Source: a phage
Assembly: GCA_028130375.1 (NCBI GenBank)
Contig: GCA_028130375.1_3658.1
Strand: one strand, 5' to 3'
Length of the DNA stretch: 64,000 bases
Below the pieces are notes generated by a model, which was not told the origin of the DNA, searched no databases, and worked only from the letters and a program-made list of their open reading frames with translations. Of the stretch, positions 27,218-30,502 are shown one piece after another. Made by a program: the position numbers and the translations under genes. Each line of letters starts with the position of its first letter. The stretch's first letter is position 1.

Positions 27218-27637
27218 ATGAACATTAAATCTAATAATCCGGCATATAGCTTTGATAACGCTTTTTGTCACGGTCCGGCGGCGAAAGGATTCGAAATCGA
27301 TGGTAAACTAATTATTGTCAATGTTGACGGGGAAGAGGTTGCAGTATATCCGGTGGCAGACGTAAAAAGTCGTTTACAATGCCGCATGGATGTTACCGCC
27401 TACCAGCTTGATCCGGTCCGCATAGTTGCCCTGGTCCTGGAAGGAGAAATTAAAGCCATGCACCATAGCAACAGGTTTATTGGTGACGCTCAGGATAATA
27501 TGAAAGTATGCCGCCATAAAGTTAATGAAGTGCTTAAAGAGTACGGCTATAAAGATCTTATGATCAAACGTGAGGAAAAATTCCGCTACCGTAACGACCT
27601 GGCAAATCGGATTTTTGAAATATACGAATCATTATAA
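27218..27637 (+). CDS. hypothetical protein
   Basis: 139 aa; RBS TAAGAGG. Confidence 0.55.
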   Translation: MNIKSNNPAYSFDNAFCHGPAAKGFEIDGKLIIVNVDGEEVAVYPVADVKSRLQCRMDVTAYQLDPVRIVALVLEGEIKAMHHSNRFIGDAQDNMKVCRHKVNEVLKEYGYKDLMIKREEKFRYRNDLANRIFEIYESL

Positions 27638-27655
27638 TTTTTAACTGAATTATCA

Positions 27656-27679
27656 AGGGGCTTAGGCCCCTTTCTTTTT
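27656..27679 (+). terminator. intrinsic terminator (GGGGC-TTAG-GCCCC, TTTCTTTTT)
   Basis: Closes the plus-strand arm. Confidence 0.55.
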
Positions 27680-28298
27680 GTCTGCTCTTCCCCCCTACCA
27701 TAAACGGCCCTACCTGGCAAGTGGAATAATTGACGAGCCATCAATCCCACACACTGTACAAATATACATGTAAAATAGCTATTGCATAACCTTTCATTGT
27801 GTGGTAGCGGTGCTATTTTTTACCCGTTTTCCTTCCAAAATTGCACGTAATGCAGTTATTGCACAAAATTTAACCTGATGCACATCTTCAATATCTTGTC
27901 AACAACTAAAAATCTTTATAAGTCATACACTTACACAAACCAAAGAGCGTGTTCTACGTGAAAAATCGAGTATAACTATAGCCGCCAGATCTCAGAATTT
28001 ACGTACGCTCGCCATTCTATAGCCTGCTAAGCATTTATTCCAACCATAGAATAACGGAATAGTCAATACCTGCATAAAATAATTATTCGTGTAAACTGCA
28101 TAACATAAATCAGCTTAGGTGTCAACATTTTTCGTAAACAGTCTGAAATTATCACGGTGAGTTATCATAAACAGAGAAATCTTTAGTCGTCTAATGTTTA
28201 CTGTACGTTACTATACTAACTGAAATCATTAGATGACTAATAGAAAGATAAGAAATAATTAACAATACAATTATTTTATCTGTAACAATAAGGCAACT

Positions 28299-28531
28299 AT
28301 GCAAACGAATGGCATGGCGCGACGGAGTCGCGACATAATATAAAAGCAGTAACCATCACCCCCGTGATAGTTTGTCTGCAAACTATTAATCAGATCATAG
28401 TTGCCTTGTATTTAGTTAATCATGACATAACAAGCAAGGCAACTATAGATCTTCTAATAGTTGCCCTGCTTTTATATTATGTCATAGATTATTAACTTGC
28501 TAATAGTTATCATGCAAACGAATGGCATGGC
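28299..28531. repeat. 20-bp direct repeat pair (ATGCAAACGAATGGCATGGC) flanking GGCAACTAT palindromes
   Basis: Exact copies at 28299-28318 and 28512-28531; AAGGCAACTATAG..CTAATAGTTGCCCT inverted repeats between them. Confidence 0.6.
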
Positions 28532-28544
28532 TTATCATTTCCAT

Positions 28545-28620
28545 GTAAACTGTCAAGGTGTAAACTATCCAGGCGTAAACAGTCTATGCGGGAACAATCT
28601 ATACGTGAACAGTGAAACAT
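28545..28620. repeat. iteron-like array (5 x GTAAAC(A/T)(A/G)TC-like units, about 15-bp period)
   Basis: GTAAACTGTCA, GTAAACTATCC, GTAAACAGTCT, GGAACAATCT, GTGAACAGTG in tandem. Confidence 0.55.
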
Positions 28621-29159
28621 GAAATAATAACAGTCGTTATTGTTCCATATTGTGTCATAGTATGTCACCATTATGTCTAAAGTGTCTAAGGTGTCAGACA
28701 AGTTTTTCTCCTCTTTGTCAAGTGCTGCATGAAAAATTTACAATCTTGTATGGTAGCATTTTTGCGGCCATGTTTACATTCAGCGATGTATGTATAAGCC
28801 TTGTTGTGTGGGCGTTTAGACGTCTAGACGGTTGGAAGTCCACAGGTCAATATCTAATCTATCGGCTGCTAACTATATCCCACACAAATAGTAATAAATA
28901 TAATTGTTATATGCGTAAACAGTAACTCATGTTATCAATCCCTGTATGTATCGCCAGTGGTGCGCATAATGGGTATTATGTTAAATTGCCCGTAATGATA
29001 ACAGTTCTCACAATGATAGGTATTCTCATTCATCCACACAAAATAGGTTGCAAATGTTGTGCCACTGTGTGAACGGCCTGGCCTATTAATTTCTCTCACT
29101 GCCTCGATATTTGAGAATTGTTATAAGAATGAGAAGTATTCCCATTCCGTCCGCCTGGC

Positions 29160-29470
29160 AGCGCTCCTGTAGGTCCTGCAAGGACTCTAGCTGAAAGCTA
29201 GACCCTTCGGGCCTCCCTGTAGGTCAGGTCAAAATCGTGGCAGAACTGAGCCTGTTCAGATATTTCTGGCTGACTCTTCAGGTCTGTGTGGGAAAAGCCA
29301 ACCTCTCCGGCGGGGCAGGGGGAGGTCAATTAAAAAATTTACGTGGTGTATGAAGCGCTCTTCAGGTAAGGCAGGTATTATGGGATGAAACCCTCTTCAG
29401 GCAATGATATTTGTGGGTGTGATATTTGCTGGAAAGCCAGATATGACGGGACTCCCGGCGGGGCAGGGGT
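29160..29470. repeat. degenerate repeat cluster (CCGGCGGGGCAGGGG x2, CTCTTCAGG x3, CCTGTAGGTC x2)
   Basis: Exact 15-mers at 29306-29320 and 29454-29468 plus short recurring words; no convincing ORF. Confidence 0.5.
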
Positions 29471-30165
29471 AGTACAGACAGGGAAAATATGAGAATGTAG
29501 TTGGGGAAATTGATCAGACAGGTAGAGTATGGAATATGTTACAAGTATGTTAAATATGGAGGTTGAATATCTGTAGGATTTGTGTGTAAAATCAAAGACT
29601 TAAGGGGTGTTGTGGTATTTTCTATAAATAATTCAAGTTTAATAGGCAATATTTGTCTCTATCCGCTTTGTGTGGTAAACAGATTCAGATTAGATTGGTT
29701 TACAAGTGTATACATAATATACAAATTAAAGATACAAGAAACCCCCCTCCCCCCTTCGGCTACCATTCACCTTTTCCTCTGACTGGTACTTAAACACTTA
29801 TTCAGACTCTTCAGGTTATCACCCATATATCATATGGCAGTGACTGGTGTCCTCCGGCCCCTCTTTCGTCACCCGTCCGCTTCGCCATGCTAATGCCATA
29901 GCTAATGGTTCGGTTGTTCACCCTGTTCACTCAGGTGTATCTCTATACCCCTTCAAACCGAAGAGAACAGAAAACCCGAATTACTCGGTAAAAGAAAAGA
30001 GAAGAACTTAATTTTATCAGGATAGGCAAGAATGTCAAGGCATGACTGCTCACTAAACAAGCAAACAGTCATGTGTGGGAGGTAAGTGATTGTGGTGGTA
30101 GGAAATTTAGTTGAAAGATGTGTTATAGGTGCTTCCAGCACTTTAGCCGGGCAGCTAATTGTGTG

Positions 30166-30381
30166 TCAGTCCAGCGGTTCATCCTCTACTTCACTGAAAT
30201 CAATGTTCATGGTCTCTTCCCAACCATCGATCTCAGCACAAGAGTGGAGTTCTTTAGGGTTTACTCCCAAAGCCTCAGCAACAGAGTCTATATTTAACAC
30301 CTCTGGCAGGTATGATTCATCGAATTCAAGGTAAATCAGGCCACGAGTGTTGTCAGCTCCACCAAATATCTCTATCTTCAT
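30166..30381 (-). CDS. hypothetical protein
   Basis: 71 aa acidic ORF. Confidence 0.45.
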   Translation of the reverse strand: MKIEIFGGADNTRGLIYLEFDESYLPEVLNIDSVAEALGVNPKELHSCAEIDGWEETMNIDFSEVEDEPLD

Positions 30382-30502
30382 AAAATCTCCTCTGGGAATG
30401 AAAGTGTGAACAGGGTTTTATACGTTCTAATGCACAGGAATTATACACGTTTGCCTCTTCAGGCCATGCTTTAGCATGAGGAACCTGTGTGGGCTCGGTG
30501 CT

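Follow-up and report, generated by a model that had tools for sequence, protein, structure and literature searches.

We analyzed the noncoding region at positions 27680 to 30165 of a 64,000-nucleotide stretch of phage DNA (the window; contig GCA_028130375.1_3658.1), which lies between two converging gene arms. We consider it very probable that this region is the genome-end, or concatemer-junction, region of a Vequintavirus and that it serves a T7-style mode of packaging. An earlier reading of the letters alone had offered a replication origin, a packaging site, or a noncoding RNA (ncRNA) locus as explanations for the repeats found there. The packaging site stood, and it comes with a genome terminus, since the ends of relatives fall at 28697 and 29155; the origin gained no support from our tests, nor did an ncRNA built from the features that had been listed.

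The phage of the window is a Vequintavirus, that is, an rV5-like Escherichia coli myophage. With positions 27600 to 30200 as the query, megablast matched 122 Vequintavirus records at 90 to 99% identity, and 96 of the 122 covered at least 80% of the query. All conservation figures below come from an alignment of 23 genomes, and the tests of open reading frames (ORFs) used 22 relatives.

Genome ends of relatives map inside the region

The ends of phage LL12 were determined by PhageTerm (PMC6658697), and their published coordinates correspond exactly to window positions 28697 to 29155. For phage Gotham, a 459-bp repeat has been described, with the statement that packaging starts at one specific sequence in all virions (PMC7471380). 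The Gotham record carries two annotated 459-bp copies, one per end; they are identical and align to window positions 28697 to 29155, so in this close relative the same short sequence stands at both ends of the DNA. A 458-bp redundancy was reported for EdH4 and HdK5 (PMC6563267), and the EdH4 record ends at the position equivalent to window 28697. Record ends inside the region fall at two positions only, in seven GenBank records: at 28697 in Gotham, ECP2303, YN3, Aya, and Pr121LW and at 29155 in bov11CS3 and bov25_3. Locating the termini had been named as a check on the sequence-only reading, and the determined ends of relatives map inside the region and not elsewhere.

Mapped onto the window, these ends delimit a direct terminal repeat (DTR) of 459 bp at 28697 to 29155 (GACAAGTTTTTC...CCGTCCGCC). 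The repeat is present in a single copy in the window, which is the joined (concatemer or circularized) form. By transfer from the relatives, the virion DNA is predicted to be linear and nonpermuted, starting at 28697 and ending at 29155, with the 459 bp at both ends. A 459-bp terminal repeat in the noncoding gap is already published for the genus: the redundancies of LL12, Gotham, EdH4, and HdK5 (PMC6658697, PMC7471380, PMC6563267) are the same element, with the same boundaries, a length of 458 to 460 bp, and the same position between the convergent arms. Those papers give coordinates only, and the repeat arrays, cut-site motifs, palindromic module, and promoter block that we describe below were in no paper that we found.

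The sequence at both cleavage positions is conserved. The left cut site, TGTCA/GACAAG, and the right cut site, GTCCGCC/TGGCAGC (a slash marks the cut), were invariant in all scorable genomes (19 to 23 of 23). The bases just outside the right cut, TGGCAGCGCTC at 29156 to 29166, were alike in 23 of 23 genomes except for one A/G position and isolated changes. The DTR itself was 458 to 460 bp long in every genome scored and had 25% variable columns, and its most conserved 50 bp contain the 14-mer GTATTATGTTAAAT (28973 to 28986). Headful (pac) packaging with permuted ends does not describe these phages, as the ends of the relatives are fixed and independent records share their end bases. The 2013 paper on rV5 assumed circular permutation; because fixed ends have since been determined in relatives, we regard that view of rV5 as superseded.

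We rejected a promoter-like site just inside the DTR (28715 to 28744, plus strand), the -10 hexamer of which changes from TACAAT to TACAAG in Gotham and EdH4. We found no Chi sites in the region that could protect the ends.

Repeats and a palindromic module lie on the left of the terminal repeat

The sequence-only reading had picked the right region for packaging, but the repeats that it listed flank the DTR and are not the terminal repeat itself. As a set, those repeats are all real and all above chance. Directly left of the DTR is an array of 9- to 10-bp units with a TGTC(A) core (28638 to 28696, plus strand; Tandem Repeats Finder [TRF] periods 10 and 9), which stops exactly at the left cut. 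The number of units varies from two to seven among the genomes, and the final TGTCA was identical in 19 of 19 scorable genomes. Opposite window positions 28550 to 28700, the record of Shigella phage CM1 (MK962749.1) has two tandem copies of the DTR with 64 bp of TGTC array between them; this tandem unit of 523 bp is either a true duplication of the junction or an assembly artifact.

Farther to the left comes an iteron-like array, in which a 15-bp unit with the core GTAAACAGT is repeated about five times (28544 to 28620, plus strand). TRF reported it as two overlapping stretches, 28544 to 28584 and 28578 to 28613, with a period of 15 and 80% matches, which bears out the five-unit array proposed earlier at 28545 to 28620. 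For the GTRAACAGT core, 1.06 occurrences are expected in the window and 5 are found, 4 of which lie in this region. Among phages, the GTRAAC copies range from one to seven with the core motif kept, and the spacer between the DTR and the second copy of a 20-bp direct repeat (see below) ranges from 106 to 429 bp.

The palindromic module (28283 to 28531) came out of repeat searching and folding and has a direct-repeat/inverted-repeat/direct-repeat layout. It is bounded by 20-bp direct repeats at 28299 to 28318 and 28512 to 28531, a pair that had been called from the letters alone and is indeed exact, and it holds a perfect 18-bp inverted repeat (28332 to 28349 and 28466 to 28483) with the arms GACATAATATAAAAGCAG. 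The AGGCAACTAT sites in it alternate in orientation: 28291 (plus), 28397 (minus), 28437 (plus), and 28457 (minus, with one mismatch). Counted with one-mismatch matches, there are 12 such sites in the window against 4.3 expected, and no shuffle reached 12; the palindromes reported earlier (GGCAACTAT) are thus present in the module and enriched beyond chance. The module also contains a hairpin resembling a minus-strand terminator (28351 to 28372). Its folding z scores were -8.3 and -8.5 on the two strands, and from this equal folding we conclude that the symmetry of the module is at the DNA level. A covariation test was uninformative within the genus, since 72 of the 89 predicted pairs never vary.

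The record of phage FV3 (NC_019517.1) lacks 213 bp opposite window positions 28299 to 28511, leaving one copy of the 20-bp repeat. The gap equals the distance between the two repeats, and it reflects either recombination between them in a viable phage or a loss during assembly. If the deletion is true, the interior of the palindrome is dispensable.

Between the module and the plus arm is an AT-rich noncoding stretch (27683 to 28282) of 24 to 39% GC with 35% variable columns, in which we found a dispersed iteron copy, CGTAAACAGTCT, at 28133 to 28144 and a second terminator-like hairpin at 27778 to 27808. The intrinsic terminator of the plus arm (27655 to 27682, plus strand) lies just past the stop codon of the last plus-arm gene. 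It consists of a hairpin at 27655 to 27672, with a 7-bp stem including 5 G-C pairs, followed by TCTTTTT, so that the terminator first placed at 27656 to 27679 has both its hairpin and its T-run. Table S4 of the rV5 paper lists a terminator, t164, named for gene 164, the homolog of that gene.

Conserved and hypervariable sequence alternate on the right

The first stretch beyond the right cut site and its conserved bases, 29167 to 29250, is hypervariable, with alternative alleles and indels and with every column variable. It is followed by a conserved noncoding stretch (29251 to 29560, plus strand) that holds CTCTTCAGG, G-rich 15-mers, and a GATATTTG(T/C) pair at 29406 to 29433. The 15-mers are those that had been given starts of 29306 and 29454; they are present and start one base later, at 29307 and 29455. 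CTCTTCAGG has three copies in this stretch, at 29274, 29358, and 29393. It occurs eight times in the window against 0.47 expected, on the plus strand only, and five of the eight are within 29274 to 30455. The three copies far from the region are intragenic and are read as Pro-Glu-Glu codons. We rejected CTCTTCAGG as a promoter element because its spacing to -10-like hexamers is inconsistent. A fifth noncoding copy (30455 to 30463, plus strand) lies between minus-arm genes, 9 nt upstream, in the minus sense, of a TATAAT, which hints at an additional role for CTCTTCAGG at a gene promoter beyond the noncoding region. The sequence from 29140 to 29480 folded no better than its shuffles. An AT-rich, moderately variable spacer of about 32 to 34% GC (29561 to 29741) with GGTAAACAGAT at 29674 to 29684 separates this stretch from a further conserved block, and both the stretch at 29251 to 29560 and that block (29742 to 30038) are conserved like coding sequence or more so.

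The layout recurs in a barely alignable lineage

Phages A7_1 and LTH01, both unclassified Vequintavirinae, have the same 139-amino-acid (aa) gene that ends the plus arm of the window, followed by 1.75 to 1.9 kb before the convergent arm. In that interval, one small ORF is annotated in LTH01 and a few are annotated in A7_1. The noncoding DNA of these phages is barely alignable to the window. The right cut motif GCC/TGGCAGC is nonetheless common to the window, A7_1, and LTH01; the 14-mer GTATTATGTTAAAT of the DTR is shared with this other genus; and CTCTTCAGG, GATATTTGTGGG, and GGTAAACAGAT are common to the window and A7_1. Overall, the window and this lineage share 69 9-mers against 24 expected, with a maximum of 41 in shuffles. 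The direct-repeat/inverted-repeat/direct-repeat layout is also present in A7_1 and LTH01, as an 18-bp direct pair around a 21-bp inverted repeat; the arms, GACACTATAAAACGAG, differ from those of the window (GACATAATATAAAAGCAG) with their complementarity kept. Three 20-bp tandem units particular to LTH01 are found at the corresponding place. Because layout and motifs persist through this turnover of sequence, we consider the flanks functional, and most simply they are candidate protein-binding DNA.

No gene-like ORF occurs in the region

That no convincing ORF lies in the region was borne out by tests of intactness and codon bias: none of the 18 candidate ORFs at 27680 to 30165 combined an intact frame in the 22 relatives with a bias toward changes in the third codon position. 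The two flanking genes had a clear excess of third-position changes in the 23-genome alignment (19/47/199 and 26/17/104 substitutions at codon positions 1/2/3). None of the six candidate ORFs that we submitted to PHROGs matched a family, whereas both flanking genes did. A tRNA scan found no tRNA or transfer-messenger RNA (tmRNA) genes in the window. Rfam 15 covariance models gave no match at the gathering threshold anywhere in the window, and in a permissive scan the sole match with an E value of <1 was at chance level, with 23 bits where the gathering score is 48.

One ORF of 47 hydrophobic aa lies inside the DTR (28929 to 29072, plus strand). It is intact in 17 of 22 relatives with a mild third-position excess (35/32/71), and it has neither a Shine-Dalgarno sequence nor a PHROG match; it may be a real microgene.

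A conserved block with a putative promoter aims at the terminal repeat

The block at 29742 to 30038 was more conserved than the genes beside the region, with 8% variable columns against 21% in those genes (Fisher P = 6e-7), and its identity was 97 to 100% across 119 records. At its upstream end on the minus strand is a near-perfect sigma-70 promoter, TTGACA-N16-TAAAAT with TG at -15/-14 (30011 to 30038, 11 of 12 positions). The last minus-arm gene is upstream of it, and it is aimed at the DTR. Both hexamers were unchanged in 22 of 23 genomes, and in the exception, CM1, a single base of the -35 hexamer differs; a further genome (L006) keeps both hexamers with spacer changes and a 2-bp insertion. 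The published rV5 promoter list does not include this promoter, and that list covered only sequence upstream of genes. Consensus matches to TTGACA-N16/17-TAWAAT are enriched in the window (20 matches, 12 and 8, against about 3 expected, about 1.5 each), and all of the consensus sigma-70 matches point in the sense direction of their own arm. This pattern of promoter-like sequences points to a heavy dependence of both arms on the host polymerase, and because consensus promoters are enriched and always sense oriented, a functional promoter at 30011 to 30038 is plausible.

Downstream of the promoter, a putative transcribed block (29755 to 30010, minus strand), assigned from its conservation and the promoter, is highly conserved and has a CU-rich 5' end. 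About 250 nt after the promoter it reaches a G6AG6 run (29742 to 29754, minus strand; C6TC6 on the plus strand), the sole such run in the 64 kb, beyond which the DNA is AT rich. The run is kept in 23 of 23 genomes with 1-nt length differences; the variants C6TC5, C6TC6, and C7TC6 represent true polymorphism or errors in sequencing a homopolymer. The run is spanned by a minus-strand ORF of 35 aa (29766 to 29659) that has a Shine-Dalgarno-like sequence; we rejected this ORF as a gene because the 1-nt differences in run length shift its frame. No ORF spans the block.

The fold of 29735 to 30005 as a whole was not above shuffles (z = -1.5). Locally, 29880 to 29999 gave a z score of -4.0 on the minus strand versus -1.9 on the plus strand, 29880 to 30004, folded on the minus strand only, gave -2.5, and there is a weak hairpin-plus-U terminator or attenuator at 29988 to 29966 (minus strand). 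A second hairpin, with a 14-bp stem (CATGACTG...CAGTCATG, 30042 to 30073), folds on the minus strand only (z = -3.7 to -4.4); it lies between the promoter and the gene stop at 30166 and probably serves as the structure at the 3' end of the minus arm. We found no copy or homolog of the block in E. coli genomes and no counterpart of it in A7_1, LTH01, or ESCO25. Both A7_1 and LTH01 carry a C5TC5TC5 run about 12 bp left of GCC/TGGCAGC, on the same strand as the run in the window, and this position beside the right-cut motif fits the G-run as part of the junction machinery. The block appears to be undescribed in the literature.

Genome setting, neighboring genes, and samples

The counterpart of the region in the rV5 genome is at 103,979 to 106,655, between genes 163 and 164, by match position and the published map. 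In Fig. 2 of the rV5 paper it is a grey "non-coding" box at which two long transcription units converge. The phage of the window is a 137-kb myovirus. In the window, both the convergent arms and a switch in GC skew are present around the region. The flanking genes, the 139-aa gene that is last in the plus arm on the left (27218 to 27637, plus strand) and the last minus-arm gene on the right (stop at 30166, minus strand), encode small proteins without an assigned function in families phrog_12277 and phrog_12108. Homologs of the 139-aa gene with 88 to 90% aa identity occur in Phapecoctavirus, which belongs to another subfamily, within unrelated surrounding DNA. In several of the Phapecoctavirus records the homolog lies 0.1 to 1.7 kb from the record end, and the gene may be a conserved end-proximal gene.

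Outside Vequintavirus, we found no DNA match to the region: sensitive blastn returned the same 122 records at 80 to 99% identity, and a distant-mode blastn for remoter homologs returned the genus only. Two scans of IMG/VR combined gave three distinct contigs only. A metagenome scan with one 15-mer, which was a poorly chosen query, yielded 120 matches, all by chance, with no true homolog among them. Nineteen of the matching records are labeled "Campylobacter phage" (MG0656xx). They are normal Vequintavirus genomes with up to 96% identity to the window, and their host label is probably wrong or derived from contamination; one of them, A135, carries an UNVERIFIED flag.

Discussion

We propose that the terminase would recognize the junction and cut at TGTCA/GACAAG on the left and at GTCCGCC/TGGCAGC on the right, and that strand-displacement synthesis would duplicate the repeat and so provide a copy at each end of the packaged genome. 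The noncoding flanks would serve as a recognition and assembly platform, with binding and bending of the DNA for the terminase. The candidate platform motifs are the phased TGTC (9 to 10 bp) and GTAAACAGT (15 bp) arrays at the left cut and CTCTTCAGG/GATATTTG at the right. The palindromic module, near the future right genome end, may be accessory. The promoter block would be a separate element, from which a host-type promoter would fire toward the DTR and give an RNA of about 250 nt that reaches G6AG6.

Parts of this scheme have parallels in known systems. The concatemer junction of T7 and T3 has a short exact terminal repeat, pacB, the promoter phiOR, the CJ pause site, and a hairpin intermediate. 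The region resembles it in having a short exact DTR with fixed cuts on both sides, a junction-aimed promoter, and an inverted repeat near the future right end; moreover, the phage has a T7-like replication set, its polymerase being of family A and its primase-helicase gp4-like. The differences are that the two share no sequence similarity, that the repeat is 459 bp here versus 160 to 230 bp in T7 and T3, and that here there is about 1 kb of noncoding DNA on each side and a host sigma-70 promoter rather than one of the phage-polymerase type, in a 137-kb myovirus. In the P1 pac hexamers, SPP1 pacL/pacR, and the R sites of lambda cosB, repeated terminase-binding motifs lie on both sides of the cut. 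Likewise, direct-oriented short motifs flank cleavage here, with the TGTC units about one helical turn apart. Those systems package by headful or with cohesive ends, however, whereas here two cuts 459 bp apart give exact terminal repeats.

Several points weigh against the packaging junction as we describe it. The termini were transferred from relatives, which are 86 to 98% identical across the region; the FV3 record is without the interior of the palindromic module, which implies that the phage can do without it or that the assembly lost it; the arrays at the left cut differ greatly among phages, which sits uneasily with a strictly sequence-specific site; and the T7-style duplication step is drawn purely by analogy.

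The same repeats could be read in two other ways. They might form an iteron-type origin, in which the 15-bp array and the module of AGGCAACTAT sites and palindromes bind a phage initiator and open the adjoining AT-rich DNA. Such an origin may coexist with packaging, and it would share with lambda ori and plasmid oriV tandem 15-bp units beside AT-rich DNA and inverted repeats. The direct and inverted repeats do adjoin DNA of 24 to 31% GC, the module layout is kept in the second lineage, where the three 20-bp tandem units of LTH01 occupy the same place, and the literature gives no position for the rV5 origin, the rV5 authors having noted only a skew change at rV5 104425 to 105475, inside the region. 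Unlike the known iteron origins, though, this region has no adjoining initiator gene and no DnaA-box cluster (we found one one-mismatch box), its copy number is unstable (one to seven, with the spacing of 106 to 429 bp among close relatives), and the 213-bp interior of the palindrome is absent from the FV3 record. The skew switch, moreover, is explained by convergent transcription, as the rV5 authors concluded. We therefore consider an origin of this kind unlikely, although it was one of the first suggestions for the region. Least probable of all, in our judgment, is that the flanks are mostly decayed neutral spacer, with function confined to the DTR and the two cut sites and the repeats being products of slippage. 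The sequence directly on either side of the DTR is hypervariable and rich in indels, the FV3 deletion lies between direct repeats, and CM1 has its tandem duplication, all of which such decay would produce. It does not account for motif cores that outlast the turnover in copy number, for the several motifs and the module layout that recur in the barely alignable lineage, or for the coding-like or stronger conservation of 29251 to 29560 and 29742 to 30038. Over both of these alternatives we prefer the packaging junction.

The promoter block requires its own explanation; its candidate roles are those of an ncRNA, an origin primed by transcription, and an element coupled to packaging. An ncRNA locus had been proposed for the repeats of the region, and for those the covariance models found nothing in Rfam; the transcribed-looking block at 29742 to 30038 was not among the features then listed. 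This block might be the gene for a trans-acting ncRNA, made early by the host RNA polymerase from the entering DNA end, and we hold this tentatively as a possibility that is real but on balance not favored. The product might be a short CU-rich small RNA (sRNA) ending at the 29988-to-29966 hairpin or the RNA of about 250 nt. The near-perfect extended -10 promoter with hexamers unchanged in 22 of 23 genomes argues for such a gene, as do the variation below that of the adjoining genes (8% versus 21%, P = 6e-7), the absence of a covering ORF, the minus-strand-specific local structure, and the enrichment of sigma-70 promoters in the window, all in the sense direction of their arm. Conversely, the whole-block fold is unexceptional (z = -1.5), no Rfam family matches, the block varies so little that there is no covariation to assess, other genera have no counterpart, and we found no Vequintavirinae transcriptome in the literature. 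We think it rather less probable that the block is a cis-acting, transcription-driven element at which RNA polymerase would stall or form a stable RNA-DNA hybrid at G6AG6, a proposal made by analogy. Such a hybrid could prime leading-strand synthesis for the T7-like replisome and thus be the origin of the rV5 group, or the stall could flag the junction to the terminase, like the pause of T7 polymerase at its concatemer junction. Transcription-primed origins with a G-run are found in ColE1 (RNA II) and at the mitochondrial LSP promoter with conserved sequence block II (G6AG8). The block resembles them in having a strong promoter, G6AG6 in the RNA sense about 250 nt on, and AT-rich DNA after that, and this is a resemblance of layout only.

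The region is largely ordinary apart from the unusually conserved promoter-bearing block, and the fine anatomy and the block, while undescribed, fall within known kinds of system. The true genome ends matter for these widely used therapeutic and biocontrol E. coli phages because they bear on consistent annotation, on genome engineering and rebooting, and on the risk of transduction; most of the matching GenBank records listed in this analysis open outside the region, and rV5 has been described as circularly permuted. The anatomy of the region also provides candidates for how the terminase of a large myovirus recognizes a short-repeat junction: invariant cut sites, phased arrays of variable copy number, a possibly dispensable palindromic module, and motifs that cross genera. 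Only the block with the promoter and the G-run may lead to something new, either an early ncRNA or the missing origin.

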